A program made the position numbers and the translations under genes. From positions 1,972 to 65,971 of the forward strand of contig CAZOTB010000006.1 in NCBI GenBank assembly GCA_964582645.1: a stretch of 64,000 bases of DNA, in the 5' to 3' direction. Positions 3,686-52,904 of this stretch are shown here, one piece after another (the stretch's first letter is position 1; each line of letters starts with the position of its first letter). Under the pieces are notes generated by a model that saw nothing but the letters and a program-made list of their open reading frames with translations, was not told the origin of the DNA and did no database searches. The DNA comes from an uncultured Verrucomicrobiota bacterium (GTDB lineage: Bacteria > Verrucomicrobiota > Verrucomicrobiia > Palsa-1439 > CAZOTB01).

Positions 3686-3867
3686 CGCCAGCAGATTAGC
3701 GGTAAATCTGCTGGCGGTCTATGCAAATCTGCCTCCGCTTGCAGGCAGGTCGGCGGCACCCCGTTGCGCCAGCCGTGCGTGTCGGGGAGCTTGGTGAAAT
3801 CACAGAACCACCAGTCGTTGCCGCGTTGTTGCCAGGTTGAGCTCATAGGCAAAATGATTGCGGGCAA
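3682..3867 (-). pseudogene. Duplicated 5' fragment of the 843..2519 gene (only about the first 25 codons conserved, then divergent/out-of-frame)
   Basis: Encodes MSSTWQQRGNDWWFCDFTKLPDTHG... compared with MLMKTTWQQRGNDWWFCDFTKLPDTRG... in the full gene. It has no glycosidase-like body. Confidence 0.5.
3785..3839. repeat. 55-bp direct repeat, copy 2
   Basis: Near-identical to 2452..2506. Confidence 0.9.
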
Positions 3868-23047: not shown

Positions 23048-25198
23048 CTAGTTTGTCCGTGATTGGTTCTGCGCCTTCAAAGTGCTGGTCACGGCGGCCG
23101 GATTGGCCTGCGCCGACTGGCGGACAACCACCGCCTGGTACAACCCAAGGCGCGGCAGCACCAGCCGCCGGCCCGCGAGCGGGAGCGGTTTCCCGTCCGG
23201 CTCTGATTGCGCTTGCGCCTCCAACTCTCCCAGCACCCCCCCCAGCTCGATTTCGATGTCGGCCAACTGCTCGCATTCGCCCGCCCCCGAAATGAAGTCG
23301 CCGGCATCGTACTGATGATTCAAGAAATGCAGCGTGATCGCGTCGCCCCGGCGGGTCGCCAGCACTTCGACGCATTCGTGACCGCGCAGGCGCACCGCTT
23401 GGCCGCCGAGCAGTTCGTTCAACAGGTTGATGGCCAGCCGGTGCGGCCAGGGATGCCGGGTCTGGTGTTCGTCGGCGCAGGTCAGTTGCAGCGCGCAGGC
23501 GATGACCCGGCCTTTGCCCACTTGATTGATCGTGATGCCCGGATGCCAATCGGCTTGCTCGCGCGTCGCCGGCCAGTTGGGCGGGTTTTGGATATCCGAC
23601 GTGCGCACCTTGTCCATGAACTGCGGCACCAGATGCGCCAGCGGCCGGGCCGTCGCGCAATGCAACACCTGGGCTTGGCCGCATTGGAAATACACCGGTT
23701 CATCGGCGAGCAATCCCGCGCTAATGGCGGGAGTCGCCGGCTGAAGATAAAATCCATACCCGCGCAACGTGCCGTGCGGCGCGCAGCCGACGAGCGATTC
23801 CAGCATGAACGGCCCGTCGGTGTTGCGGCGCGCCAGCGGGCCTTCGACCAACAACCGTCCGCCGTGTCGCACGTAAGCTTCGAGCGCGATGGCCAGTTCG
23901 TCGTCGATTTCGAGCGCGGCGGGCACGATCAGCGCCCGGGGCGCATGCGCCGCGTCGAGTGTGCGGACGATGGTGAAGAGGAAATGGCCGTTGCGCAGCC
24001 ATTCGACCCATTTCCAGATCGCGGTCGGGCGGTCAACGAGGCAGCACTGGCCGGCTTCAAGCAGGCCGATCTCGGCGACGGGCTGGCCGCCGGTGAGCAG
24101 GGGGCGGTTGGTCCGCACCCACGCGCCCCATTCGGCCAGCCGGTCCATGTTGCCGGCCGACAACCGGCCATCGGGGGCGTGATTGATGCCGAGAGTGTAC
24201 GTGCCGCCGCCGATCAAGGTGGCGAGCGATTCGAGCTGGATGAGCGTGAGCGGCTTGGCCACGTTGTGCGACCACTCCAGTTCGGCGCAACTCATCAATT
24301 CATACGGCCGCCCGTCCTGGGGCAACAACTTCGTCCACAGGCACCGGGCCGGCGGGTGGTGTGCCTCGCCGGTGTAGTAGTCGGAGAGCTCGTCCACCCG
24401 GTCGTTGAACGGGTGGCGCCGTTTGCCCGCACCGTTGAAGCTCAGCAGCAGCGGCCGCGGCAGCTTGAGCAGGTCGCGTTTCACTTCAATCAGGAAGCGC
24501 CGGTAGCTCTCCGCGCGGAACTCGTCGTGGCGCGTGGTACCGAATGCGTCGGTCAGATGCTCGCCGCCGAACCACTCCGAATAGGCCCGGTGACAGTGTT
24601 CGCAGAAACAGGTGTCCTGGCCCTCTTTCAGGTCACAAGCCGGCGGATGCGGCGGCAGATAGAGAATGTCGAGCCAGTAGCCCACGATCGGGTAACGCTC
24701 GGCCAGTTCACGCAGTTGGGCGCGCACGAAATCGCGGAACGGGCTGTTCACGCACAGCCAATGATAGTGGAAGAAGTACTTGTGGTCGGGCACGAGAACC
24801 CGGTCATGCACATCCCGAATGCGCCACTCGGGATGTTCGCTGCCCACGAGGCTGTTCAGCGAGAGCGAGTAGTAGGCGATGACGCGAATGTCGCGTTTGC
24901 GGCAGGCGGCCACCTGTTCGCCAAAGAAATCGCGCGTGGGCTGCGCCTTCGTGTGCGCCGACGGCCAAAGCTGGAAGCCGTCATGGTGCTGCGTGAGCAG
25001 CGTGACTGTCTCGAACCCGATCCTGGCCCACGTGGCCGCGTAGTGGTCGGGATCGAACTGACTCTTGTCCGCCGCCCATGCCGGCGAGATGAAATGGGGA
25101 ATGCCGCGGATGAGGTCCGTCTTGAGCCACGGAAACAGTCGCGCCACCTCTTCGGCGCTTCGCACCACATCGTCCGCCTGTGCTGGTATCAATGGCAT
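23048..25198 (-). CDS. GH29-like alpha-L-fucosidase domain protein with additional C-terminal domains (716 aa)
   Basis: HHDGFQLWPS motif typical of GH29 TIM-barrel fucosidases. Confidence 0.6.
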   Translation of the reverse strand: MPLIPAQADDVVRSAEEVARLFPWLKTDLIRGIPHFISPAWAADKSQFDPDHYAATWARIGFETVTLLTQHHDGFQLWPSAHTKAQPTRDFFGEQVAACRKRDIRVIAYYSLSLNSLVGSEHPEWRIRDVHDRVLVPDHKYFFHYHWLCVNSPFRDFVRAQLRELAERYPIVGYWLDILYLPPHPPACDLKEGQDTCFCEHCHRAYSEWFGGEHLTDAFGTTRHDEFRAESYRRFLIEVKRDLLKLPRPLLLSFNGAGKRRHPFNDRVDELSDYYTGEAHHPPARCLWTKLLPQDGRPYELMSCAELEWSHNVAKPLTLIQLESLATLIGGGTYTLGINHAPDGRLSAGNMDRLAEWGAWVRTNRPLLTGGQPVAEIGLLEAGQCCLVDRPTAIWKWVEWLRNGHFLFTIVRTLDAAHAPRALIVPAALEIDDELAIALEAYVRHGGRLLVEGPLARRNTDGPFMLESLVGCAPHGTLRGYGFYLQPATPAISAGLLADEPVYFQCGQAQVLHCATARPLAHLVPQFMDKVRTSDIQNPPNWPATREQADWHPGITINQVGKGRVIACALQLTCADEHQTRHPWPHRLAINLLNELLGGQAVRLRGHECVEVLATRRGDAITLHFLNHQYDAGDFISGAGECEQLADIEIELGGVLGELEAQAQSEPDGKPLPLAGRRLVLPRLGLYQAVVVRQSAQANPAAVTSTLKAQNQSRTN

Positions 25199-26230: not shown

Positions 26231-26617
26231 CTAGCGAGAGGCGGTCCGACAAAAGTCGTCTGCACGCTCGATCATTCGATTCAGCATTGCGCCGACGTGT
26301 TGCCATCGGTCGTCCATTTCCCGGTGCTGCGCCAGGGTCAGGTAACCGCAGTCCACGGCGTGATCAAGCCAAGCCTGTGTTTCCATTGCTTCACCCAGAG
26401 CATCGTCAATCTTGCTGATAAAGGACGCCGGATACCGTCGGCGCGCCCAAGCTTCCGCGATCATCGCATTCACCGCGCGGGAGGAACGCCGTATCTGGTC
26501 GGTGAGTGAGTACTTCTCTTCGGGCGGAAATCCGTTTGTGATCAAGAATACCTTCTTTGCTTCTGCACGGGCGAGCTTGTAAACCTCCAAGTCCCGAAAA
26601 CTCCGAATAGCCGGCAT
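26231..26617 (-). CDS. Four-helix-bundle protein (23S rRNA intervening-sequence protein family, PF05635/TIGR02436-like)
   Basis: FRDLEVYKLARAEAKKVFLITNGFPPEEKYSLTDQIRRSSRAVNAMIAEAW matches the family signature. Strong RBS ggaaggag. Inserted between MoxR and DUF58. Confidence 0.85.
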   Translation of the reverse strand: MPAIRSFRDLEVYKLARAEAKKVFLITNGFPPEEKYSLTDQIRRSSRAVNAMIAEAWARRRYPASFISKIDDALGEAMETQAWLDHAVDCGYLTLAQHREMDDRWQHVGAMLNRMIERADDFCRTASR

Positions 26618-26636: not shown

Positions 26637-26662
26637 TCCTCTATCCTCTATCCTCTATCCTC
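26637..26662. repeat. CCTCTAT heptamer tandem repeat (tcctctatcctctatcctctatcctc), right partner of the inverted pair
   Basis: Its reverse complement equals the 26193..26218 repeat with one mismatch. It lies in the 5' UTR of the four-helix-bundle gene. Confidence 0.85.
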
Positions 26663-27674
26663 GAGCTTTTGCGTAATCCGCTTCCGTGGGTTCGGGGACG
26701 TTCTGGAGCAACTGCTCGATGATGTTCACCGAAGAAATCCCTTTCGCTTCCGCAGCGAAACTCGGCAGGATGCGGTGACGCAATACCGGCTTGGCGACGG
26801 CGCGGATGTCTTCGCAGGAGACATTATAGTGGCCGTGCAGCGCGGCGTGAGCCTTCGCGCCGAGCACCAGGTACTGCACGGCGCGCGGGCCGGCGCCCCA
26901 ATCAATCAGTTGCTTCGCAAAATCAGCCGAGTCAGTTTCCTTGGGGCGTGTGGCGCGGACGAGGTTCACGGCGTAGCCGGCCACGTGCGGCGTGATCGGG
27001 ATCTCGCGGACGAGGCGCTGGAAGTTGATGATGTCCGCGCCGCTGAAAACTGCCTCGAGCGCGGGCTTCTCCATCCCGGTTGTTCGCAGAGCGATCTGCA
27101 GCTCTTCTTCCTTCGTGGGATACGTGATCGCCACTTTGAACATGAACCGGTCGAGTTGCGCCTCGGGCAACGGATATGTTCCTTCCTGCTCGATCGGGTT
27201 CTGCGTCGCGAGCACGAAGAATGGTTCGTCCAGTTTGTAGTCGCCGCCGCCGATGGTGATCTTGTGTTCCTGCATCGCTTCGAGCAAGGCAGCCTGCGTC
27301 TTGGGCGGGGTGCGGTTGATTTCGTCGGCGAGGATGATGTTGGCGAAAATCGGCCCGTGAATGAACCGCACGCTGCGTTTGCCGGTGGTCATGTCTTCCT
27401 CCATCACGTCCGTACCGAGAATGTCCGACGGCATCAGGTCGGGCGTGAACTGGATGCGCTTGAACTTGAGGTGCAGTAGCCGGGCGAGCGTCGAGATCAT
27501 CAACGTCTTCGCCAGCCCGGGCACGCCTTCGAGCAGGCAGTGTCCCCCGCAAAGCACGGTGGTGAGCAGTTCATCCACCACATGCGTCTGGCCGATGATG
27601 ACCTTGGACAATTCGGCCTGGATTTTGTCGCGGCCATCGCGAAGCAGTTCGATCGAGTCGGTTGTTTGTGTCAT
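26655..27674 (-). CDS. MoxR-family AAA+ ATPase
   Basis: Walker A GVPGLAKT, Walker B LADEINR and a MoxR-like C-terminus, 339 aa. Confidence 0.95.
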   Translation of the reverse strand: MTQTTDSIELLRDGRDKIQAELSKVIIGQTHVVDELLTTVLCGGHCLLEGVPGLAKTLMISTLARLLHLKFKRIQFTPDLMPSDILGTDVMEEDMTTGKRSVRFIHGPIFANIILADEINRTPPKTQAALLEAMQEHKITIGGGDYKLDEPFFVLATQNPIEQEGTYPLPEAQLDRFMFKVAITYPTKEEELQIALRTTGMEKPALEAVFSGADIINFQRLVREIPITPHVAGYAVNLVRATRPKETDSADFAKQLIDWGAGPRAVQYLVLGAKAHAALHGHYNVSCEDIRAVAKPVLRHRILPSFAAEAKGISSVNIIEQLLQNVPEPTEADYAKARG

Positions 27675-27890
27675 GATTTCAAGATTCTCCTATGGGACAA
27701 ACGCGGCGAGTTAAACATGGTGACGCAGAGAATGCCAAGCTTGAACTCCCTCGTCACCGAAACTTTTTTTCCTTCTATTTCGTGACACGATTTTCTGTTT
27801 GCCGTTTCGCAAAGGCCTTAGCCTGCGTCAAATCCAGAAGCGGGTCGTCAAGGCTATTTTCGTTTGTTTTCCTCAGCAAAAAGAAAGATT

Positions 27891-27917
27891 TTGACATGGG
27901 GGGGGGGCACCTATGGT
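27891..27917 (+). promoter_or_regulatory. Sigma70-like promoter candidate with a G10 homopolymer in the spacer (TTGACA - t G10 cacc - TATGGT)
   Basis: -35 hexamer at 27891-27896, -10 at 27912-27917, 15-nt spacer containing the G10 tract 27898-27907. It lies about 60 bp upstream of the lipoprotein start in an AT-rich intergenic region. Confidence 0.35.
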
Positions 27918-27976
27918 AGAGCCCACGACAGTTCGGAAAAGCGATTGTGAAACGACAAGGACAAGGCGCCGTCGGG

Positions 27977-29656
27977 ATGAGAGCGGTAATTTCAGTTCTG
28001 CTCGCGAGCGTGCTTCTCGTGGCGATCAGTGCATGCACCACGAGCAAGCAAGCCAAGCGTGAGAAGCAGCCCACGACTGAAACAGTGTTCGCGCTCCCGG
28101 AAGGTTTGCACGCGGAAGCGCAGTACCGGCCGGGAGTGGACTCCTCGAAATACCCACTGATCGAAGTCTATCTGCACAATCAAACGAGCCAGCCGGTGGA
28201 ATGGAAGCGTGCCTCTCTGAACGGGAACCAATTGCAGATGCTGACGAACGGGGTCGTGTGGTTCCAGTTCTATCCGACGGAGAAGGCCAATCCCGGTGAG
28301 ACGGTTCTCCTTCAAGTCAATCTGGTGGCGAATCCCCGGAACGAACAGACGGTTCGCTGTGAGACACAGGATGGGCGAATCATCGAAGTCAAACTGCCAC
28401 CCTTCTCAATACCTGCGGTGAAGATGGACGCGGTTACGTTCAGTTGGGACTTCCGTCAGATGTTCGTCGCGTATTCTCCGGGGAGCTACTTCGACTGCTC
28501 TCAGTTGGTGCCCTCGCGTGTTCTCGTGAATGGCGTGGATGCAACCGCAACTTCGGAACTCCTTTCCCCGCCCACTCTGAAAGAGCCTGCCTTTCTCCGA
28601 GTGAAGCTGCCGGAGCCGACCGAGCAAGGCCGCCCTATGTACGTGCGACTGGAGTTGAGGAATGGGATCGTGCGCCACTGTTTGGTTCGAGCTTGGAAGG
28701 GGTTTTTCCTCGACGCGTTCGCGGTGGACGAAAAGAATGCCAAGCTTCGCAAAGCTCTCGGGCTCGATCATCGCCCATTCGGCCGCCACTGCGGTGGCGA
28801 TCCAGCGTGCAATGATCTCGCGCTGGGCAGAAAGTACGGGGCATCCATGGATTCAGTCTTGGAAGAAAGAAAGGCTTCGTGGAAAGAAAAGGATAATCGC
28901 CTCAGCTACGTCTCCCTCTGTACAGCGGCCACGCCAAACGCAGCCTATTCCATCTATGGGCAGTGCATGGACGCGGCCCAAGCCAACCCTTATCGTCTGC
29001 ATTGGTCGCAAGAGGAAAAGTTTGTTGAAACGGAGGAGCGATACCTTCGCTGGTGCCGGCAGGCTGCTTCCCCTCGCCCATGGTTCTGGTTTCCAGAAAC
29101 CTTTGAAGTGCACGGTCGCATTCTGGAAGCCGAGGAGTTGCGCCTGCTGGCGTGCGCAGCGGTCGGCCAAGGGGTAAAAGGCATCAATTATTTCTGCCAT
29201 TCCTATGCTGGACCCCCTCCAGTCCATGGCTTCGATAAGAGTCCGAGGCTGCTTGCCGAAGTTAGAACTCTCAACCGTATGTTCAAAAAATACGAGCACA
29301 TCTTTTCGACCGCCATTCCAATTTCAGACGAAAGTTCTACCGATCAAGCGGATAAGATGGCTGTCAAGACACTCTGGTGCGGAGACCCATCTGGAGTCTT
29401 GGTCGTAATTCGCAACATGGACTATTCGACGGACCGCACTCCCAACGAGTACGGCTCCCATGCCCGATTCCATTGGAAGCCTAATAAAGAGCCGGCAAAA
29501 ATCAGTATTGGTAAGCCCATCTGGATGCCGCTGTGCAAGCATGGCTATGCAACTGATCTGCTAAGTGGAAGACAGGTTCATTACACCGTGAAGGATGCCG
29601 CGATATGGTTGGACATTCAACTGGACCTAGCGAGTCTCATTTTCATCCCGAGCTAA
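27977..29656 (+). CDS. Lipoprotein, function unknown (about 560 aa)
   Basis: MRAVISVLLASVLLVAISAC lipobox signal peptide with AAGGA upstream of ATG 27977. The track starts at an upstream GTG (27947). GC is lower than the flanks. Confidence 0.75.
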   Translation: MRAVISVLLASVLLVAISACTTSKQAKREKQPTTETVFALPEGLHAEAQYRPGVDSSKYPLIEVYLHNQTSQPVEWKRASLNGNQLQMLTNGVVWFQFYPTEKANPGETVLLQVNLVANPRNEQTVRCETQDGRIIEVKLPPFSIPAVKMDAVTFSWDFRQMFVAYSPGSYFDCSQLVPSRVLVNGVDATATSELLSPPTLKEPAFLRVKLPEPTEQGRPMYVRLELRNGIVRHCLVRAWKGFFLDAFAVDEKNAKLRKALGLDHRPFGRHCGGDPACNDLALGRKYGASMDSVLEERKASWKEKDNRLSYVSLCTAATPNAAYSIYGQCMDAAQANPYRLHWSQEEKFVETEERYLRWCRQAASPRPWFWFPETFEVHGRILEAEELRLLACAAVGQGVKGINYFCHSYAGPPPVHGFDKSPRLLAEVRTLNRMFKKYEHIFSTAIPISDESSTDQADKMAVKTLWCGDPSGVLVVIRNMDYSTDRTPNEYGSHARFHWKPNKEPAKISIGKPIWMPLCKHGYATDLLSGRQVHYTVKDAAIWLDIQLDLASLIFIPS

Positions 29657-29663
29657 AGGAGGA

Positions 29664-31478
29664 ATGCTGATGACAGCGATGACGAGAAACTTGAGCATTA
29701 AGTTGCGACACTATGGATTTTTGTTGAGTCTTGTGCTCGTCCAACATTGCTCTGCGCAGACTCCCGACGTGAGCCCGGACATCTCCATCTCTGTCGGCGG
29801 CGTTGCGCGAAGCCAACTTTGTGTGGGCGAACAAGCCACGTTCAGCGCCGAGAATCAGTGCACTGCTGATCCCGATGGCCCAATCAACTATTCTTGGAGT
29901 GGCGCAGTGTCGGGGACAAATCAAACCGTTTACGGATCTTTTACAACGACAGGGAACCGGACGGCTACAGTGAATGTCCATTACAATACAGCCGAGGGCG
30001 GCGTGTACGATGGTTCCACCAATTCACAGTTTACCGTTAAGACAGTATCTTCAATCACCTATGCGAAGAGCGCTGTTTGCCTCGGACAACAAGAACCTTT
30101 CCAGGTGGCGACCGATCCTGCAAATTGCTATGAAGGGATAACGATCACCGTTCCTGATGGCGAGCTCATATCCTACAGTACAAGTACGGGAATCGCCCAA
30201 GTAAAGTTGAACGTTCTTTCCACCGACAATAATGACAAGAAAACCGTCACGGCGAAGTGTGGGGATCCGTCCTGTTCAACCTGCACAGGCCAGGCAAGTA
30301 CTCAAGTTGTCGTGGCTAAAGTGGCCTCTATCACACGGTCGCCATCGGATGGTCCGACTACTGTTTGTAAGGATGAATTTCAGCAGTTTCAGGTGGAAAC
30401 CGAGCCAACCGGACATTACGATAAACCCATTGTTGTTTCCGCATTCGCGTCAGTTAATTATGATACGAATTCAGGGATTGCAACGGTGCACTTTACGAAT
30501 GCATCTCAGACCGCCGTTAATATTTGGGCGAGTTGCGGTCCTGACTCAAAAAACATCGAAACGACAGTGGTAGATGTCGGACCCATTTACGCGACATGCA
30601 CAAATAGAGTTGGAGCCGATGGTGGTCAGATAGGCTTTATGGTGACCCCAACGCCCTCAAATAGGCAGATCGAATGGCGCTACGAAGGAAGCTCTCAAGT
30701 GTGGACCGGTACTACTTTCACTGTTACAGCCCCCTCGGGAAATGGTTTCTTCACAGTGACAGCAAGCGACAAAGACTTGCCGACGTGCTCCGAGACTTTC
30801 GAGGTCGAGGTCGTGGGACATTGTGGTGCGAACTATCCGTGGGAAAATTTCGCCTACGATTCGACCGAAGAAGGAAGGCCGGCCAATTGCGGCGGAGACC
30901 TAGCTTTGTTTGAGCCGCCTCCATTTGCGGTTGCGATCACGGGCAATTACACTGCCTGCCATGGAGTGATCAGTAACACCACTGCATGGTTTCCCCGCAT
31001 AGTCGCACTCGGTTTCACCTATTACAAGGATGTGTGTTGCGGCAGTAGGACCGCTATTACAAACGCGACCATGGTCACGAGCAACGACTTCTGCAATGGC
31101 ATCTTGGCTGAACTTGAACCCCCTGGAGCGTATACAAATTACTGCGCGCCGACGTGCCTCGAAGACTACGTCAGCGTGGGCAACGATGCCTACTGGGCAA
31201 TCTGTACCAACCAGTGGGCGGTGGGAGAAGCTATAGTGGAATCCAAGACGAAGTCATTCGTCTGCATCCAGCGCGACGCCGTCGATGAGGCAGAACGTGA
31301 CCTGGAGGACGATGTCAACAGCGCATTACAGAGTGTCTACAACAACATTATCGCTCAATGGAATAGTCAGTTTGCTACGATTGAGGAAGCCGCCTACGAC
31401 GCTGAAGAGGCCTGCTTGCAGGCACTATCAAGCGAGATCGAACAAAAGGCCTATATTAATGGTTGGACGTGCCCTTGA
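29664..31478 (+). CDS. Secreted Cys-rich protein with internal Ig-like repeats and a distinct C-terminal Cys-rich domain ending ...WTCP
   Basis: Signal peptide present. About 85-aa internal repeats. GC about 47-50%. The C-terminal about 100 aa are homologous to the fragment at 34141..34671. Confidence 0.75.
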   Translation: MLMTAMTRNLSIKLRHYGFLLSLVLVQHCSAQTPDVSPDISISVGGVARSQLCVGEQATFSAENQCTADPDGPINYSWSGAVSGTNQTVYGSFTTTGNRTATVNVHYNTAEGGVYDGSTNSQFTVKTVSSITYAKSAVCLGQQEPFQVATDPANCYEGITITVPDGELISYSTSTGIAQVKLNVLSTDNNDKKTVTAKCGDPSCSTCTGQASTQVVVAKVASITRSPSDGPTTVCKDEFQQFQVETEPTGHYDKPIVVSAFASVNYDTNSGIATVHFTNASQTAVNIWASCGPDSKNIETTVVDVGPIYATCTNRVGADGGQIGFMVTPTPSNRQIEWRYEGSSQVWTGTTFTVTAPSGNGFFTVTASDKDLPTCSETFEVEVVGHCGANYPWENFAYDSTEEGRPANCGGDLALFEPPPFAVAITGNYTACHGVISNTTAWFPRIVALGFTYYKDVCCGSRTAITNATMVTSNDFCNGILAELEPPGAYTNYCAPTCLEDYVSVGNDAYWAICTNQWAVGEAIVESKTKSFVCIQRDAVDEAERDLEDDVNSALQSVYNNIIAQWNSQFATIEEAAYDAEEACLQALSSEIEQKAYINGWTCP

Positions 31479-31500
31479 TAACCGTGAAGAGGAGAAGAAT

Positions 31501-32313
31501 ATGAGCACAAACAGTATGCTAGACAGCGCCAACGGTCAGAGGCTAGTTGCGAGTTTAGTTGCGTGTTTCAGCCTTCTGGGATTGGGAGCCGGGGATTTAT
31601 CCGCCCAATCCCACGGGGGAATGAACAAGTCAACTCCTGAGAAGCAGTTGCTTTCAATGGGATTCGGAACATCCGCAGAAGACCTGCGTAACGCCCTGGG
31701 CAATTCCAACTTGCTGGCCAGGGTCTTCGCTACCCAATTTATCAAAGAGCAAAATGATAAAGCCTTCACCTCTGACATAAAGAAGCTCTTGGACGACAAG
31801 GAGTCGTGCGTTCGTGTTGAAGCCGCAATGGTATTGGCTCCATGGGGAGAAGCAAAGGCTTCGGAGGTCCTTCGTTCGGAGTTGCAGACTTCCGAAGATG
31901 TGAATGTAAGATTGCGTGCAGCGGGGGCACTGGCTGATGTTGGTGATAGCAGAGGGTTCGGCTTGGTCAAAGCCACCTTGCTTGATGAACGCTCTCCCGT
32001 GCAAACGTACGCCGCAACCATGATACAGAAGTTCGCCCGCTTCCGCGGCCAAGGCATAGACAGCCTCGCCGTTCAACTGCAAGCAATGGACATCGCTGTT
32101 AAGAAGGCCGAGAAGAAAGAAAGTGAGGGTGCGGTCAGACAAGCAGCATGGCTGTTCAGAGTCTTGGCGCATGACTTGGAGCAATCCGAGGACAGCCGGG
32201 CGGTGGCCAAGTTGCATGAGGCTTCCAAGTCGAAGGATCCCAAGATTCGTTTTGCCGCTGAACAAAGCCTGAAAAGAAGCGAGCAGAAGCAGGCTAGCGG
32301 GAAACAGCATTGA
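31501..32313 (+). CDS. Secreted HEAT/PBS-lyase-like repeat protein
   Basis: RBS GGAGAAG followed by ATG 31501. Signal peptide LVASLVACFSLLGLGAGDLSAQS. HEAT-like repeats. Paralog of 34727..35530. Confidence 0.75.
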   Translation: MSTNSMLDSANGQRLVASLVACFSLLGLGAGDLSAQSHGGMNKSTPEKQLLSMGFGTSAEDLRNALGNSNLLARVFATQFIKEQNDKAFTSDIKKLLDDKESCVRVEAAMVLAPWGEAKASEVLRSELQTSEDVNVRLRAAGALADVGDSRGFGLVKATLLDERSPVQTYAATMIQKFARFRGQGIDSLAVQLQAMDIAVKKAEKKESEGAVRQAAWLFRVLAHDLEQSEDSRAVAKLHEASKSKDPKIRFAAEQSLKRSEQKQASGKQH

Positions 32314-32363
32314 GATGGCTTAAAGCCTCAAAGCATTGAACCCAATGCGAGACGCGTCTCGGC

Positions 32364-32870
32364 TTGAACCGCTCGGGGCGCGGTTATACCATCGCGGGCC
32401 GGATGAGATGCTTGCGGATGAAGCAGTTTATAGCGTCGGCATGGACGAGGTCGAAATGCCTGACCAGCAAACTTAGCGAAATCCTCAAACACAACAATGC
32501 CTCTGGGTGGGCAACTTTTCTCGTGTCACTCGTGATGGTATACGCCCTCCTCCAGACCAACAGGGCCATCAAGCAGACCGCTGAGTCTATCGAACTCCAG
32601 AGGTCTGCTAACTCTAACGCTGCCGTACAACTGCGAATCGAGCAGGATACGAGGTTATACCCGGAACTAGAATGCCGGTGGGACACCATCAGCGGCCTCG
32701 TCCTCCGCAACGTGGGTACCGCGCCTGCGACGAACATCAATCTTCGCACTGCCGTTGTCTGCGTCACGTCCAATGTTTCATACGACTTCCGAGCGCGGCG
32801 GGGTCACATCTTCAATTTTCACAAAGGAATTTTCCGTCCCGCCAATCCTCAGTCGGTTTGTGACAATTGA
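32364..32870 (+). CDS. hypothetical protein with one TM helix
   Basis: ORF with a hydrophobic segment WATFLVSLVMVYALLQT. Low-GC island context. Confidence 0.4.
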   Translation: MNRSGRGYTIAGRMRCLRMKQFIASAWTRSKCLTSKLSEILKHNNASGWATFLVSLVMVYALLQTNRAIKQTAESIELQRSANSNAAVQLRIEQDTRLYPELECRWDTISGLVLRNVGTAPATNINLRTAVVCVTSNVSYDFRARRGHIFNFHKGIFRPANPQSVCDN

Positions 32871-32989
32871 AGATCAGACCCCGGCTGGCCCTGCCGAGCC
32901 GTGTGGCCTTTCGAAGATGCATTCGAAGATGCACTGGGAGAGGATCACGAAGGTTTCACAGCTTGCTACGTTTCAAGCGCTGATTCGTG

Positions 32990-34134
32990 GTATTCTCCGC
33001 GCGGTCATAGATTGAGCTTCTGAGAGGCTGGCGTGGACAGCGCAAATCCAGTACAATCAGATCGAGTTGGTCGCTTGACGATCATGCTTCAACTGGAATT
33101 CCGTTTCGAGGACATCGAGTTCTTCGAACGCCAGCGGTTCGAGCATCCTCACCCCTGGCTGCAACGCAAGTTTGAAGCCCTCTTCCTCAAAAGCCACCAC
33201 CTGCCGCATCAGACCATCTGCGAACTGTGCGGGATTTGTGGCAACACCTTGCGCCGCTACCTCATCGAGTACCAGCAGGGGGGCCTCGCCCACGTGCAGG
33301 AACTACCCTTTCACCGTCCCTCCAGCGTCTTGGAATCGCATCGCGGCTTCCTGCGAGAGGAGTTCACGCTGCGACCGGTGGCTACCGTCCGAGAGGCGGC
33401 GGCGCGCATCGCTGAACTCACCGGCGTGCGCCTGTGCCTGACCCAGACCCGGGATTGGTTGCATCGGCTCGGTCTGAAGTGGCGCAAGGTGGCACCGATC
33501 CCGGCCAAGGCCGATCCGGCCGCCCAAGCCGAGCTCAAGGCTCAGAAGCTCGAACCGCGTCTGCAGGAGGCGCGGGCGGGCCAACGGGCGGTCTATTTCG
33601 TGGATGCGGCTCACTTTGTCTATGGGGCATTTCTGGGGTGTTTATGGTCGCTGACGCGGGTGTTTGTGCGCACGCCGTCCGGTCGGCAGCGCTTCAACGT
33701 GCTGGGGGCGCTCGATGCGCTGACGCACGAACTGATCACGGTGACCAACGAGACGTATATCAACGCGCTGAGTGTGTGTCAGTTGCTGCGACAACTGGCG
33801 GCGCAAGCCGGGGGCAAGGCGGTGACCGTGGTGCTGGACAACGCGCGCTACCAGCACTGTGCGCTGGTGGAGACGGAGGCGGCGGCGTTGGGGATCGAGT
33901 TGCTGTTTTTGCCGCCGTATTCGCCGAACCTGAACTTGATCGAGCGGTTGTGGAAGTTTGTGAAGAAGCGCTGTTTGAACTCGAGGTATCATGCAGATTT
34001 TGGGGTGTTTCGGGGTGCGATCCAGGAATGTTTGGCGAAGATTGGAACCCGCCACAAAGCGGAGCTCGATACGCTACTGACCCTCAATTTCCAGACGTTT
34101 GAAAAAGCTCAATCTATGACCGCGTGAAGAATAC
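32990..34134 (+). mobile_element. IS630-family insertion sequence (about 1.15 kb) with 29-bp imperfect terminal inverted repeats
   Basis: TIRs gtattctccgcgcggtcatagattgagc (32990..33017) and gctcaatctatgaccgcgtgaagaatac (34107..34134) share 26/29 identity. A single transposase ORF lies inside, and the element's GC is higher than the surrounding island. Confidence 0.8.
33033..34127 (+). CDS. IS630/Tc1-mariner family transposase (DDE_3)
   Basis: Hallmark LLFLPPYSPNLNLIERLW motif. An N-terminal HTH region is present. The start may be the internal Met at 33084. Confidence 0.85.
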   Translation: MDSANPVQSDRVGRLTIMLQLEFRFEDIEFFERQRFEHPHPWLQRKFEALFLKSHHLPHQTICELCGICGNTLRRYLIEYQQGGLAHVQELPFHRPSSVLESHRGFLREEFTLRPVATVREAAARIAELTGVRLCLTQTRDWLHRLGLKWRKVAPIPAKADPAAQAELKAQKLEPRLQEARAGQRAVYFVDAAHFVYGAFLGCLWSLTRVFVRTPSGRQRFNVLGALDALTHELITVTNETYINALSVCQLLRQLAAQAGGKAVTVVLDNARYQHCALVETEAAALGIELLFLPPYSPNLNLIERLWKFVKKRCLNSRYHADFGVFRGAIQECLAKIGTRHKAELDTLLTLNFQTFEKAQSMTA

Positions 34135-34140
34135 ATCCGA

Positions 34141-34671
34141 GTGACAGGCATAAAAATCAAAGTTTTTATCAATGTTTGTCGGCCACCGCCGACGGCTGGT
34201 GTACCTTTCATAGAGGGAGCCGGCGATCCACAGATTAACTCAGGTAACGTTTGCTCTGTTCTTTGCAGCTTTACCCCTAATCAGACTGGTTGCGCACCGT
34301 ATTCGAACTTTGCTTCTGAGGACTGTCTCAAAGCTCATGAAGAACAACATTTTCAGGATTTTGACGATGAATTTGACTTTATCTGGGCGTATTATGAAGA
34401 TGAGATCGAAGACCTCCACGTCCCTTTTGCCTGTACAGACATGGATGACCCTGCGGAGGCTGTTGAAGCCATCTTTTGGTCCGAAGACGGCAACGGCATA
34501 GGGGATCAACTATCCGAAGCGTACCTCGCTGCTGCTGACATTTTCAATGATGCCACTTGGCGGGCTCAATCTGAAGTCAACGCAATCGCAGCAGAAAACA
34601 CTTGTTTATCAGGACAGCGGGCGCAAATCCAGCAGCGATTTGGCCAACCCAGTTGTCCGAGCTGCCCGTGA
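34141..34671 (+). CDS. Orphan C-terminal module homologous to the C-terminus of 29664..31478 (GTG-initiated at the IS630 right end, no signal peptide)
   Basis: Shared pattern CAP..., F[VA]C..D, A.W..Q....AA..E..CL......Q......CP, ending SCPSCP versus WTCP. The reading frame is closed by a stop 24 nt upstream inside the IS TIR. Confidence 0.45.
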   Translation: MTGIKIKVFINVCRPPPTAGVPFIEGAGDPQINSGNVCSVLCSFTPNQTGCAPYSNFASEDCLKAHEEQHFQDFDDEFDFIWAYYEDEIEDLHVPFACTDMDDPAEAVEAIFWSEDGNGIGDQLSEAYLAAADIFNDATWRAQSEVNAIAAENTCLSGQRAQIQQRFGQPSCPSCP

Positions 34672-34726
34672 AATAATGCTACAATACAATCTGCAAAGAA
34701 TGAGCGGAACAGAAGGGAGAATACAA

Positions 34727-35530
34727 ATGGAACTTAGTAGAGGACGAACAGTAACTATTTCTATTTCGTTGGTTACTTTGTGTCTCGCAATTAACGCAGT
34801 GAGTTTGCATGCCCAAACACCGGCAGGCAGGGGTGACGACATGCCCGTACCAACCTCAGAGGAGCAACTCAAGGCGAAGGGATTCGACACGACGGAGGAA
34901 GGACTTCGAAGTGCCCTGAGCACTTCGAATACGTTGACCCGCGTTTACGCGGTTCGAGTTATCAAAGAGAAGAACATCAAATCACTCATACCGGATCTGG
35001 AACTGCTGCTCGACGACAGTAAATCGAGGACTAGGGCCGAGGCCGCTATGGCGCTCGCCAAGTTGGGGAGCCCTAGAGGGCTCCCGTCCCTAAAAATGGA
35101 AATGAAAACATCCAAGGAACAGGGCGTCAAGCTTGATGTTGCAGGAGCACTCGCTGAGTTAGGCGACAGCAGTGGCTATTCTGTTGTCAAAGCCTGCCTG
35201 TTGGATAGTAAGAACCTTGGGTTGCAGCACATGGCCTCGCACCAAGTACACAAATTCTCTGGTCTCAAGGGGGGAGCAGACGCACAATCGCTTTACCTGC
35301 TAGGCATGGATGCAGCGGGTCGCCAGGCGAAAAGCGAGAACGAGAAAGAGGCCAAATCAGCCCGTGTGTTGTTTAGACTGATGGTGAGCGGGCTTGGGAT
35401 GGTTGGTGATGAAGGGGCAATGCCAAAACTACAAGAAATGACCCAATCGGATGATCCTGAACTGCGTGAGGCAGCCGAAAGAGCTTTGAAAACCATCGAG
35501 AAGCGAGTCGAAAGTAAAACGAAGAAATGA
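34727..35530 (+). CDS. Secreted HEAT/PBS-lyase-like repeat protein, paralog of 31501..32313
   Basis: RBS AAGGGAGAA followed by ATG 34727. Signal peptide TVTISISLVTLCLAINAVSLHAQ. About 35% identity to the first HEAT gene, visible by eye. Confidence 0.75.
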   Translation: MELSRGRTVTISISLVTLCLAINAVSLHAQTPAGRGDDMPVPTSEEQLKAKGFDTTEEGLRSALSTSNTLTRVYAVRVIKEKNIKSLIPDLELLLDDSKSRTRAEAAMALAKLGSPRGLPSLKMEMKTSKEQGVKLDVAGALAELGDSSGYSVVKACLLDSKNLGLQHMASHQVHKFSGLKGGADAQSLYLLGMDAAGRQAKSENEKEAKSARVLFRLMVSGLGMVGDEGAMPKLQEMTQSDDPELREAAERALKTIEKRVESKTKK

Positions 35531-35612
35531 GTTTAGGATGGGTTGTAATTATTGAAAATCTGATCGACTGTCATGGACTCATCCCAATCCATTCCACACA
35601 TTCGATTGTTTC

Positions 35613-35993
35613 TCACAGTTGATCCTTCTTTTCTGAAACTTGAGCAGACTCTTTCACGGAAGCTTGTTCATCGGCGATACTTGGGCGTTTGTTTATCTTA
35701 GTCTGGCATTCTTCCGTCACGGTCTGGCGTGTTTCTGTCGCAGTCTGGCGTTCTTCCGTGAGAAATTGGCGTTTGTCTTTCATACTTTGGTCAGCTTTCG
35801 ACACACTCTGGCCGTTGTTCTTAACCCAGATGTCTTTGTCTTTACCGCTTTTGTGCGCGGGTGCGACGGATTGACCGTGGCGAGGCCGGCGTAGCCGCGG
35901 TTCTGGGCAGCGCGCGAGTTTACAGATTTGTCTTCCTGGAAGGGGAAATTCCCCTTCACCTTTATCCTCTCCCGCGCTGGGGAGAGGAAACAA
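35613..35993 (-). CDS. Possible small heptad-repeat protein (RQTATETRQTVTEECQTK...) spanning the 21-bp array; coding status uncertain
   Basis: Longest ORF across the array. The alternative plus-strand ORF 35640..35894 is also open. Confidence 0.25.
   Translation of the reverse strand: MFPLPSAGEDKGEGEFPLPGRQICKLARCPEPRLRRPRHGQSVAPAHKSGKDKDIWVKNNGQSVSKADQSMKDKRQFLTEERQTATETRQTVTEECQTKINKRPSIADEQASVKESAQVSEKKDQL
35680..35826. repeat. 21-bp degenerate tandem repeat array (about 7 units, consensus GTCTGGCGTTCTTCCGTCACG)
   Basis: Units at 35680, 35701, 35722, 35743, 35764, 35785 and 35806. It would encode 7-aa periodic peptides on either strand. Confidence 0.8.
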
Positions 35994-36269
35994 AGCTCTT
36001 CGTGTGACAACCGCTCAGTCTGCGGGTTCGATTTCGACCACCCGCACCTCCTTCGCGAGATGGTCTCTCCAAAATGTTATCAGGAATTCGTGGTGCAATT
36101 TGACATCCAATTCGCGTCCCGTGTCGTCCTTCTCCGTGAAATCACCGGCCACAGCCTGGCTCGCTTTGAGTGCATCGAGGAATTGAAAAAAGCTTGCGTC
36201 GTTTCACGCCTCGTATCGAGAGCAGGAACTGCAGCGCGTCCTCGTCAAGCACAAGCTTCCAAGCCCGAC

Positions 36270-36482
36270 TCATAGGCCCGCAGCCCGCAATTCCCTGTCG
36301 AGCCGCTTCGCAGTATCAAGGGTTACCTTCCCACCGGCATCCATTCGACGCATGCGCGCGCCGAGCTTGGCCTGGTGGGTCGGATCATCCATTCTTGCGA
36401 GATGCTTGAGGTACGCGCTCGCAAAAAGCCGATTCTCACCGCTCATCTTGTCAATGGACTTTCTGATTTGCGTCGTGCTCAT
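36270..36482 (-). CDS. hypothetical small protein (70 aa)
   Basis: Short ORF in the AT-richer tail of the island. Followed by another sub-60-aa ORF at about 36018-36131 with only a GTG start. Confidence 0.3.
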   Translation of the reverse strand: MSTTQIRKSIDKMSGENRLFASAYLKHLARMDDPTHQAKLGARMRRMDAGGKVTLDTAKRLDRELRAAGL

Positions 36483-45422: not shown

Positions 45423-46346
45423 TTACGCGTCGCCGCCGGCGTGTTTCACCAGCGCCGCGATGGCGATGGAATGGATCTTCGTCTGCGCCGTCTCGGCCCG
45501 GGACAGCAGTATGATCGGCACCTTCGCGCCGACGATGATTCCGCCGCTCTCGCCTTTTGCAAAGTAGATGACGGCACGATAGAAAATGTTGGCCGCCTCG
45601 ATGTCGGGATGGAGAAATATGTCGGCGCTGGCCACGACCGGGCTCTTGATTCCCTTTCGGTCGGCGGCGAATTCACTCAGCGGCACGTCGAGCGCCAGCG
45701 GGCCCTCGATGTATGCGCCGGTAATCTGACCGCGCCGGTTCATCATCGTCAACGCGGCCGCGTCCACCGTCGCGGGCATGTCGGGGTTCACGAATTCGAG
45801 CGCGCACAACGGCACCAACTTCGGCTCGGCGATGCCGATGGCGTGGGCGACCTCGATGCAGTTCTTGGCGATCTCCGCCTTCTGCGCGAGCGTGGGCGCG
45901 ATGTTGATGGCGGCGTCGCTCATGATCATGAGTCGCTTGAAGCCCGGCACCTCAAAGACGACCACCTGGCAAAGGTGCCGACCCGTGCGCAGACCGGTTT
46001 CCTTGTCGAGGACGGTTTTGATCAACGTCGCCGTGCTGACTTTGCCCTTCATCAACAGATCGGCCTTGCCTTCGCGAACCAACCCGGTTGCCTTTTGCGC
46101 ACAGGCGGACGGATCGGTCTCGTGAATCAACTTCGAAGCGGGAATCTTGAGGCCCACCTTGTCGGCCAGGCTCTGGATTTTCGACTTGTCGCCGACGAAG
46201 ATGCCTTCTGCCAATCCCATCTCGCCCGCGAGCTTGATGCTTTCGATCACATCGGGGTCCTGTCCCACGGCGACGGCGATGCGCTGTTTGCCGAGTTGCC
46301 GGGCAGAATCTACCAGTTCCTTCAGCGACTTGAACGGCTGTTTCAT
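45423..46346 (-). CDS. ptb: Phosphate butyryltransferase / phosphate acetyltransferase family (PTA_PTB)
   Basis: 307 aa with characteristic DPDVIESIKLAGEMGLAEGIFVGD and SRAETAQTKIHSIAIAAL regions. No adjacent buk gene. Confidence 0.8.
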   Translation of the reverse strand: MKQPFKSLKELVDSARQLGKQRIAVAVGQDPDVIESIKLAGEMGLAEGIFVGDKSKIQSLADKVGLKIPASKLIHETDPSACAQKATGLVREGKADLLMKGKVSTATLIKTVLDKETGLRTGRHLCQVVVFEVPGFKRLMIMSDAAINIAPTLAQKAEIAKNCIEVAHAIGIAEPKLVPLCALEFVNPDMPATVDAAALTMMNRRGQITGAYIEGPLALDVPLSEFAADRKGIKSPVVASADIFLHPDIEAANIFYRAVIYFAKGESGGIIVGAKVPIILLSRAETAQTKIHSIAIAALVKHAGGDA

Positions 46347-46481
46347 AACGTGATGCCGAAAAACGCGGTGATGCTAGGAGACTGCGCCATTCACGTCAAC
46401 GGGATTCAGGATTCCGCGCGCTCAACGGTGCTGGCATCGGCACTGCTAAACGGGCTGAACCCAATCGAAAGGAAATTACTC

Positions 46482-47120
46482 ATGAAAATCAGATCAACGT
46501 CGTGTTTGTTCGCAGCAATGCTGGCGGTGTTTTACTTTTTCGTCGGACAACCTACCACGGGCCGCGCGGGCGGACTTCCCGTCGAGGTGCTCGAGCTCCA
46601 GACCTCGATGAAAGGAGCAGAACAGGAATACGATGGAGAAACACCGGTCATCGCCAAGGTCACCATCACCCCGGACATCCTGATCAACCTGGCTCTCGGA
46701 CGACCCATCGCAAATCCAGTTGGCGATACCGAGGTGCTGGGTTTCATCGTTTGCTGGGAAGGTCCTCCCGTGATCGTCGTGTATGATACCGAGTCCGAAG
46801 AAATCCTCGCCACCATCGCCGTCGGCGAGGCGATCTATGCGGCGGATTCACAATCGAAATCGGTGGTCCTGGTCGTGTTCGACATTCAGGAGACGGGAAA
46901 TGAGAACAACGGCCTCAGCGGCGGTTTCCTGATTCTGACCGGCGGCTCGACGAACGGCGAGGACGAGTGTCCCACGTCGGTTTTGGGCACGCTGGTCGGC
47001 GTGTTACAGGGCGTCACGACGGACGAATTCTCCACCGAGGAATTCGAGGTCATTATCAACAAAGGAAAACTCAGCGTGAAGGCGCCCCCCATCGGCGTCG
47101 TGATCGGTGGACCGCTCTAA
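46482..47120 (+). CDS. Small secreted hypothetical protein (212 aa)
   Basis: RBS aaaggaa followed by ATG 46482 and signal peptide MKIRSTSCLFAAMLAVFYFFVG. The track ORF 45441..47120 is over-extended because the upstream region lacks stops. Confidence 0.6.
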   Translation: MKIRSTSCLFAAMLAVFYFFVGQPTTGRAGGLPVEVLELQTSMKGAEQEYDGETPVIAKVTITPDILINLALGRPIANPVGDTEVLGFIVCWEGPPVIVVYDTESEEILATIAVGEAIYAADSQSKSVVLVVFDIQETGNENNGLSGGFLILTGGSTNGEDECPTSVLGTLVGVLQGVTTDEFSTEEFEVIINKGKLSVKAPPIGVVIGGPL

Positions 47121-47197: not shown

Positions 47198-47296
47198 AGC
47201 AACATTGTAGGAGCCGTTCCCCGAACAGCGAACGTGGAAGATCGCGATTCGGGGAACTGCTCCTGCGAGTGAAGTGCGGGCTTGGGCAAAAGGCAA

Positions 47297-47370
<74 letters not shown>

Positions 47371-47423
47371 ATCAACGGCGGCAGAATGGTAGATGGGGAA
47401 TGGGAAATGGTCAATCAGTTCCC

Positions 47424-52397: not shown

Positions 52398-52825
52398 TTG
52401 GTGCGTGCGCGAAACAACGCGACCCCATTTCCGTAATCGGAAACGAGTGCCCGCACCGCGTTCGTGGCAAGCTCGGGCGGGATTGTTCCCGATTTGAAGT
52501 TCCCGACGGCGATGGGCGGTTTCTGGCCGCGAGTCAACACCACGGGTGCGAGCACGTACTGCGTAAACGCGAAATGGGAGGCAGAACCGGTATCCGAAAC
52601 GTACCCAACCACACGTTTGGGATCCAGCTCGGCCCGGATCTTTGCGAAGCGGCGTTTGTACTTCGCGAGTTCATTCCATGGGTCGTAATACGCGATCTCG
52701 CTCTCCGGGTACGGGCTGGAGTACCGTTTCGCCTCCCGCCCGAACAGGATCAGGTTGGAAACCAGCGCGAACGAACCCACCAGAAAAATGGCCAGGACGC
52801 GACGGACGGGCAGATCAAGTTTCAT
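52394..52825 (-). CDS. Small membrane-anchored hypothetical protein (143 aa)
   Basis: N-terminal TM helix. The stop overlaps the downstream membrane-protein start (4 bp). Confidence 0.55.
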   Translation of the reverse strand: MKLDLPVRRVLAIFLVGSFALVSNLILFGREAKRYSSPYPESEIAYYDPWNELAKYKRRFAKIRAELDPKRVVGYVSDTGSASHFAFTQYVLAPVVLTRGQKPPIAVGNFKSGTIPPELATNAVRALVSDYGNGVALFRARTK

Positions 52826-52904
52826 GACGCGGCGGCGAGCATAGCTGGTGTGCGCCGGTCGTCAAAGCTGTTTCCGATCATCCACCCGCGCAAGAATGGA
52901 GTGA

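Follow-up and report, generated by a model that had tools for sequence, protein, structure and literature searches.

A G10 homopolymer in the putative promoter spacer of a lipoprotein operon from an uncultured Verrucomicrobiota bacterium: a candidate contingency locus

The lipoprotein cassette and its upstream region

The window (i.e., the whole 64-kb stretch of DNA analyzed here, 61% GC) contains a cassette of three genes on the forward strand. The first encodes a lipoprotein (27947..29656, +), the second a 604-aa secreted protein of no known family (29664..31478, +, an open reading frame), and the third a HEAT-repeat protein (31459..32313, +, Pfam HEAT_2) taken from the gene call of an identical JGI contig. 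The same gene order is kept in the cassette of the ortholog described below, in which the lipoprotein, the secreted protein, and the HEAT-repeat protein comprise 580, 608, and 285 aa, respectively. The divergent neighbor, a gene for a MoxR AAA+ ATPase (26655..27674, -, Pfam AAA_3), lies outside this unit and is separated from the lipoprotein gene by an intergenic region of 272-302 nt that has a GC content of 47% versus 61% for the window. Between the MoxR gene and a DUF58/VWA gene there is an inserted gene (26231-26617, -) whose product is a four-helix protein of the 23S rRNA intervening-sequence (bAvd-like) type; this gene is missing from the same operon of a related contig (L126) whose MoxR is 90% identical to that of the window.

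Two starts are available to the lipoprotein gene, a GTG at 27947 that yields 569 aa and an ATG at 27977 that yields 559 aa in the public gene calls. The original prediction had placed the start at 27977 and thus agrees with the annotation, but sequence conservation makes the in-frame GTG at 27947 the more likely true start, because (G/A)TGAARCG and an MKR N-terminus are shared with the ortholog (MKRQGQ in the window when read from GTG and MKRGEQ in the ortholog). This codon follows an RBS-like GGAAAAG (both within 27935..27949, +), of which GAAAAG is also kept in the ortholog. Reading from GTG 27947, the distance from the -10 element to the start is 24 nt, versus 22-28 nt in the relatives. The predicted lipobox of the protein reads LLVAISAC (AISAC), with the codon of the cysteine at 28034-28036.

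Searches of the lipoprotein against Pfam and NCBIfam returned no family match. In its AF2 model (pTM 0.80), a pair of Ig-like beta-sandwiches is combined with a (beta/alpha) barrel and with another beta-sandwich at the C-terminus. The best matches of a Foldseek comparison against the PDB were glycoside hydrolases and transferases (isoamylase, GlgE, GH36, PslG, and GH29), all with low TM-scores. On the basis of these structural matches to glycoside hydrolases and of a marginal match to GH35-like enzymes in an HMM search (E = 0.02), a role as a glycan-active envelope lipoprotein is a reasonable but weak assignment. The product, a candidate surface or envelope component, has a lipobox signal peptide and a secreted partner, and the copies of the gene that bear the homopolymer described below diverge faster. 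Regarding the size of this protein family, 7 clusters were first found among 5.8 billion proteins and 524 representatives were later retrieved by profile search. A 559-aa open reading frame elsewhere in the window (45441-47120) was considered as a further relative of the lipoprotein and was found to be unrelated.

With the cassette begins a stretch whose composition is atypical (27.9-36.3 kb): its GC content is 50-58% versus ~62%, and its GC content at third codon positions (0.53-0.75) is mostly below the 0.6-0.8 usual elsewhere in the window. This region holds, besides the cassette with its HEAT-repeat gene (31459-32313), an IS630-like DDE_3 transposase (33033-34127) and a second HEAT-repeat gene (34547-35530), and possibly represents a horizontally acquired island (27900-36300). 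The closest named homologs of MoxR are 62-65% identical and come from Poribacteria, Planctomycetota, and Armatimonadota; that of the lipoprotein comes from a Verrucomicrobia MAG and is 44% identical.

Upstream of the lipoprotein gene, positions 27889-27922 of the forward strand consist of TTTTGACA, T, GGGGGGGGGG, CACC, TATGGT, and AGAGC, in this order. Specifically, the -35 element TTTTGACA (27889..27896, with TTGACA at 27891-27896) is followed by a single T (27897), by a homopolymer of ten Gs (27898..27907), and by CACC (27908..27911). After these come two overlapping candidates for the -10 element, namely TATGGT (27912..27917), which leaves a 15-nt spacer at G10, and TAGAGC (27917..27922), which leaves a spacer of 20 nt. 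The original prediction had given the coordinates of TTGACA, T, G10, CACC, and TATGGT, as well as the 15-nt spacing, exactly. Of the hexamers close to the tract, TATGGT comes nearest to a -10 element, with T1, A2, and T6 present, and TTGACA-15-TATGGT is the sole TTGAC..TAnnnT pair at this promoter locus. The three nucleotides before TAGAGC are TGG and thus similar to an extended -10 (TGn). Immediately 5' of the -35 element there is an A-rich block (27878-27888) that falls within the upstream regulatory DNA travelling with the cassette (27748..27890, +), as delimited by local alignment with the region upstream of the ortholog (L005). The same DNA includes a GTCAAGG (27847-27853) that is conserved in the ortholog alignment. 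Short inverted repeats were sought in the intergenic region, and none involved the G10 tract.

Sigma70-type promoters could be recognized at two other places in the window, which lends credit to the promoter type originally proposed. TTGACC-17-TACCAT (47386-47414, -) stops 15 nt short of the mature 5' end of tRNA-Arg(CCG) (47296-47371, -), and TTGACG-16-TATGCT (52838-52865, -) stops 12 nt short of an ATG start codon at 52825 (-). Since these promoters of the window itself follow TTGACx-N16/17-TAnnnT, spacers of 15, 19, and 20 nt are off-optimum. At the lipoprotein promoter the -35 element is perfect and the spacer is 15 or 20 nt, outside the 16-18 nt that usually part the two hexamers. A scan for consensus sigma70 promoters between 27500 and 28200 reported no site, because it demands a spacer of 16-18 nt.

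G10 is the longest homopolymer of the window, in which all other G runs have a length of at most 6. The second-longest homopolymer is a C8 (23236-23243), i.e., a coding-strand G8 located ~650 codons into a 716-codon GHL6/alpha-L-fucosidase-like gene (23048-25198, -). When the window was simulated 300 times with a third-order Markov model, a run of at least ten G or C arose five times (~2%). A single window would thus rarely contain a run like G10, whereas a whole genome is expected to contain a few. Likewise, a scan of 185,579 genomes for TTTTGACA followed by nine or more Gs retrieved 84 loci, which is approximately what a rough chance estimate gives. Both figures speak for a neutral run that arose by chance, which together with a sequencing or assembly artifact makes up a functionless reading of G10 that we consider highly improbable. 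Against it, the tract was reproduced across independent assemblers and samples: assemblies from JGI, ENA, and Logan and those derived from NCBI all show it identically, so that an assembly artifact is excluded as its source. Only three G or C runs of at least 9 nt were present in related DNA amounting to 125 kb after removal of redundancy, every one of them upstream of a member of the lipoprotein family.

Promoters of the related lipoprotein genes

Look-up of the exact protein recovered the window locus from one Logan run and from a pair of JGI metagenomes. In this lineage, three contigs are 100% identical to the window and another (L124) is 99.77% identical (13 mismatches and 2 gaps), and G10 is found in all of them. 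The closest relative of the lipoprotein (P0002/P0009, hereafter the ortholog) shares 64% identity and is encoded at a non-syntenic locus that adjoins DUF2442 and LigD genes and is devoid of MoxR. About 53 nt 5' of its start codon it carries TTTTGACA-GGGGGGGGGG-CGTTCGCGGTACATG. This second lineage is represented by five assemblies (JGI, ENA, and Logan) that fall into three haplotypes with 13-28 substitutions over 5.6 kb and no indels, all of which have G10. The databases searched contained these two tract-bearing lineages only; exact look-up of the second gene of the cassette brought no further copies of the promoter, and exact look-up of P0010, introduced below, found no gene on record.

The two tract-bearing lineages can be aligned over ~200 nt of upstream DNA (~27748-27976 of the window). 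The original prediction is supported in that the G tract lies in the putative spacer and is conserved, and in that the gene downstream of it has a lipobox. No similarity was found between the DNA on the MoxR side of the window cassette and the ortholog locus. The MoxR gene of L126, which derives from the same samples as the ortholog lineage, has a different gene upstream; the region 5' of it showed no similarity to the upstream DNA of the cassette, and did not yield an alignable 'empty site'. Since the upstream DNA is shared and MoxR is not adjacent in the relatives, the cassette moves with its own regulatory region. Within this region the promoter flanks are ~65% identical between the lineages, and the ten Gs are uninterrupted in both. 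The survival of an unbroken tract at the homologous position of a 64%-identical ortholog, although its flanks have diverged, counts against a chance run. A recent exchange of promoters between the lineages would revive that explanation, but is disfavored by this same level of flank identity. Given the comparative conservation, an origin by chance or artifact is very unlikely.

Other relatives of the lipoprotein are preceded by promoters that carry no homopolymer (B-type, as opposed to the tract-bearing A-type). Their genes, P0003 (on L096) and P0004/P0010 (on L007 and L008), encode proteins with ~50% identity to that of the window and 77% identity to each other. Once the gene starts were corrected to the ATG of the lipobox-containing frame, both B-type promoters read AAATGTTTTGACT-N18-TACTGT, then 22 nt, then ATG. 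At the position of the tract, they carry TCGTTTGAGC or CCCTTTGAGG. A four-way MAFFT alignment of tract-bearing and tract-free promoters left AAA..TTTTGAC and GGTA (27915-27918 in the window) as the sole invariant blocks 5' of the RBS region, and a search of the window and the related loci for this TTTTGAC...GGTA architecture found none outside the lipoprotein family. Because TTTTGAC(A/T) is invariant in the four family promoters, TTGACA is credible as the -35 element, in agreement with the original prediction. The conserved GGTA, in turn, makes TAGAGC the homologous -10 element of the window and TACATG that of the ortholog, both of which align with TACTGT of the tract-free copies. By this homology, the spacer between the -35 and -10 elements amounts to 20 nt in the window, 19 nt in the ortholog, and 18 nt in the tract-free relatives, and the A-type promoters thus exceed the B-type arrangement (TTGACT-N18-TACTGT) by +2 and +1 nt. 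The latter has the spacing of an ordinary sigma70 promoter, while TAGAGC and TACATG do not have the usual final T. G10 begins 0-1 nt after the -35 element, and the extra T between the two is present in one lineage only.

The homology-based position of the -10 element bears directly on the reading that TATGGT is the -10 element, that its 15-nt spacer is too short at G10, and that expansion to G11-G12 turns the promoter on, as had originally been proposed. The matches of TATGGT at T1, A2, and T6, and its place in the only TTGAC..TAnnnT pair of the locus, recommend this hexamer. However, it is not conserved: the ortholog has CGCGGT instead and contains no -10-like hexamer at a spacing of 14-16 nt, and the GGTA block sets the -10 element of the family five nt further downstream. 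Homology hence makes the spacer too long rather than too short, with G8 rather than G11-G12 restoring the family spacing, and we regard this reading as improbable. TATGGT may nevertheless be a second -10 element that is specific to the window.

A third member of the family (P0005 on L009, from a Verrucomicrobia MAG, 44% identity) provided a further homopolymer, a C9 (L009:3827-3835) located ~80 nt before the probable GTG start of the gene (3905). Compared to G10, this tract belongs to the opposite strand and has other local surroundings. If an ATG at 3821 were the start, C9 would fall in codons 2-5; the annotated start is probably too far downstream, and the annotated starts of both P0004 and P0005 cut off the signal peptides. 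The recurrence of partly independent G:C tracts 5' of one gene family argues against chance and resembles what is seen at contingency loci. Likewise, that G10 has stayed uninterrupted across such divergence, together with the C9 of this third member, argues, on comparative grounds, for the maintenance of G10 by selection on the tract itself.

Protein divergence is larger within the tract-bearing pair (64% identity) than within the tract-free pair (77%), and one tract-bearing and one tract-free copy occurred in each of the two sampled communities. This pattern is compatible with a switchable and fast-evolving copy beside a constitutive one, a pairing that is seen at the level of the community.

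No length polymorphism was found: the tract is exactly G10 in nine of nine assemblies, which represent five haplotypes (0.2-0.5% divergent) and two deep, species-level lineages, although these lengths were read from assembly consensus sequences, in which minority alleles are invisible. The original prediction had looked to differences in tract length across strains, and the comparison returned the same length throughout. Contigs from three assemblers (Logan, JGI, and ENA) also cross the tract unbroken, which likewise counts against a switch. Because a consensus hides minority alleles, this uniformity weakens the hypothesis of a switch without refuting it. A scan that allowed for variable lengths (TTTTGACA N0-1 G6 N7-16 GGTASA) retrieved one known contig and 21 unrelated chance matches from a collection of metagenome contigs that apparently does not include the other source samples. 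As the tract length is equal in the two lineages even though their spacers differ (20 versus 19 nt), the constraint seems to act on the tract rather than on the spacing.

A proposed length-dependent promoter switch and other readings of the tract

We tentatively favor, at a probability that we place somewhat short of even, the reading that the locus is a promoter-spacer contingency switch of the porA / tp0126 type that acts on the lipoprotein operon and rests in a low or off state. According to this proposal, G10 would sit between the -35 and -10 elements of a sigma70-type promoter that drives the three-gene cassette, and would serve as a slipped-strand switch or rheostat whose output depends on tract length (i.e., a contingency locus). 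The tract is uninterrupted and lies above the length of ~7-8 nt or more that marks the threshold for slipping. With G10, the resting state would probably be low or off, because the spacer to TAGAGC has 20 nt and is thus 2 nt above the 18 nt of the tract-free relatives. Loss of two Gs in the window (G8), or of one in the ortholog (G9), would regain the 18-nt spacing of the family. Conversely, a gain of one to three Gs (G11-G13) would bring the window-specific TATGGT to a spacing of 16-18 nt, and G9-G10 may therefore represent a trough between two 'on' length classes. The site of transcription start, a useful rate of length change, and expression that follows tract length are the parts of this proposal that we infer. 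Its context is supportive, in that the target is a lipoprotein operon, located in an atypical region with a transposase, that diverges faster than its tract-free counterpart.

The uniform tract length also fits a different explanation, in which G10 is a functional spacer element of fixed length that is selected as such, and in which expression is constitutive or conventionally regulated. In this case the tract could be a contact site for a regulator or for a sigma region, or it could act through its geometry. Poly(dG).poly(dC) DNA has an A-like geometry with a shorter rise and a lower twist, which might make 19-20 bp behave like ~18 bp. The strongest point for a fixed element is the equal tract length within unequal total spacers (20 versus 19 nt), to which can be added that every assembly of both deep lineages has exactly G10 despite the extra T in one of them, and that the conservation of ~200 nt of upstream DNA, including GTCAAGG, suggests conventional regulation. 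On the other hand, the C9 of the third family member, on the opposite strand and at another position, fits better with a mutable tract under selection, and an ordinary spacer of 18 nt serves the tract-free relatives. To our knowledge, no protein requires a G10 promoter spacer. We see a fixed element as the main rival account of the tract, less probable than a switch.

The tract could also act at the level of RNA, either because it is transcribed from a promoter further upstream or because it is itself a site of initiation, with reiterative transcription or a structure in the 5'-UTR as the effector. A precedent is found in Bacillus subtilis pyrG, in which G runs at the start site drive reiterative transcription. 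Nevertheless, an Rfam search of the leader and promoter region gave no match at E <= 1, and the folding of this region (z = +0.27 and +1.0) was no more structured than that of shuffled sequences. With neither an RNA family nor significant structure, RNA offers no competitor to a role at the DNA level. Moreover, no convincing -10 element was seen ~7 nt 5' of the tract, and the conserved blocks fit a pair of -35 and -10 elements flanking it. An action through RNA is thus most improbable.

A two-sided formulation, which we hold to be unlikely, is that the locus is either a fixed G10 module (i.e., a structural device for an over-long spacer, or a dock for an unknown regulator) or a genuine contingency locus, with a free-living and uncultured bacterium of the environment as its host. 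Should the contingency alternative be true, the lipoprotein would exist as a switchable copy and, beside it, a tract-free copy that is expressed constitutively. Under either reading, the mechanism is not new in kind.

Known promoter-spacer repeats and other poly-G loci

Promoter-spacer homopolymer switching is textbook knowledge for the surface antigens of Neisseria, Treponema, and Bordetella. [quoted passage not shown] These systems differ from the window locus, which has no known activator, in the type of repeat or in their dependence on the activator BvgA.

The closest parallel to the switch that we propose is the porA gene of Neisseria meningitidis. As summarized in a published account, it has a G tract of ~9-11 nt between the -35 and -10 elements, and the length of the spacer sets expression, with an optimum at 17 nt (PMC7864442). 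What the window locus would have in common with porA is a G:C homopolymer in the promoter spacer of a gene for an outer-surface protein, here a predicted lipoprotein. They differ in that the link between length and expression is here deduced from sequence, in that the resting spacer would be too long (19-20 nt) instead of shortened from an optimum, and in the host, which is an uncultured environmental bacterium and not a host-adapted pathogen. In the case of opc, the poly-C overlaps the -35 element, whereas the tract of the window starts 0-1 nt after it.

Treponema pallidum offers three further examples (PMC7864442). The OmpW homolog tp0126 has a poly-G between the -35 and -10 elements, and its transcription is optimal at a 17-nt spacing. 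The promoters of tprE/G/J are permissive only with eight Gs or fewer, so that contraction turns these genes on. For tprL, G9 is the modal length in several strains, and minority lengths from G7 to G11 are visible only by fragment analysis. Length variation and its effects on the promoter were measured in this species, whereas in the window they are predicted from sequence, and the proteins encoded downstream belong to unrelated families. Long mononucleotide repeats in coding regions of Akkermansia have been noted as possible sites of phase variation (PMC3048395), and our search of the literature found no example of a promoter-spacer homopolymer from this part of the tree.

The most direct comparison is offered by the tract-free copies of the family (P0003 on L096 and P0004/P0010 on L007). 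They resemble the window promoter in the context of the -35 element (AAATGTTTTGAC), in a -10 region that contains GGTA, in the short leader, and in the encoded lipoprotein, which belongs to the same fold family. They differ in having an ordinary 18-nt spacer of mixed sequence with no homopolymer. Tract-bearing and tract-free copies that share their -35 and -10 elements therefore amount to a natural experiment. If the proposed switching is true, promoter-spacer homopolymer switching would extend to uncultured environmental bacteria, beyond host-adapted pathogens. Its target would then be a surface lipoprotein resembling polysaccharide-active enzymes, which is presumably under pressure from phages, predators, or fluctuating substrates. 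The locus could also serve as a test of whether mutational equilibrium or a direct function is the reason why tract length is conserved so exactly.

Poly-G tracts of other kinds were encountered during the searches. In MAGs of Melainabacteria (Gastranaerophilales) and in one 'Fusobacterium' MAG, ~25 copies of ATGAAAAAC..GTAAACATTTTGACA-G(9-16) were found, most of which are followed by a prepilin-like N-terminus (FTMAEILLSLTIIGVV), the poly-G being situated near the 5' end of the coding sequence in genes that resemble those of type IV pilins. These loci are distributed over MOYE01 (L016, L028, L062, L076, L083, and L085), CAMUPF01 (L043, L047, L052, L056, L061, and L065), OZ007029 (L059 and L089), and the 'Fusobacterium sp.' MAG NALB_7963_5 (L013, L021, L023, L045, L050, L063, L067, L070, L075, and L090), with another at L022. 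The copies differ in tract length, which ranges between G9 and G16, and in some assemblies the tract is interrupted by NN gaps. Judging from these sequences, the genes seem to form a large pilin family with phase variation at the level of translation. Another poly-G promoter spacer was observed in an Opitutae MAG of the Verrucomicrobia (CAIYEN010000256, L027:140-250), where TTGACA-G12-C-TATAAG, with a spacer of 13 nt, is followed after 8 nt by the ATG of a secreted protein with a signal peptide.
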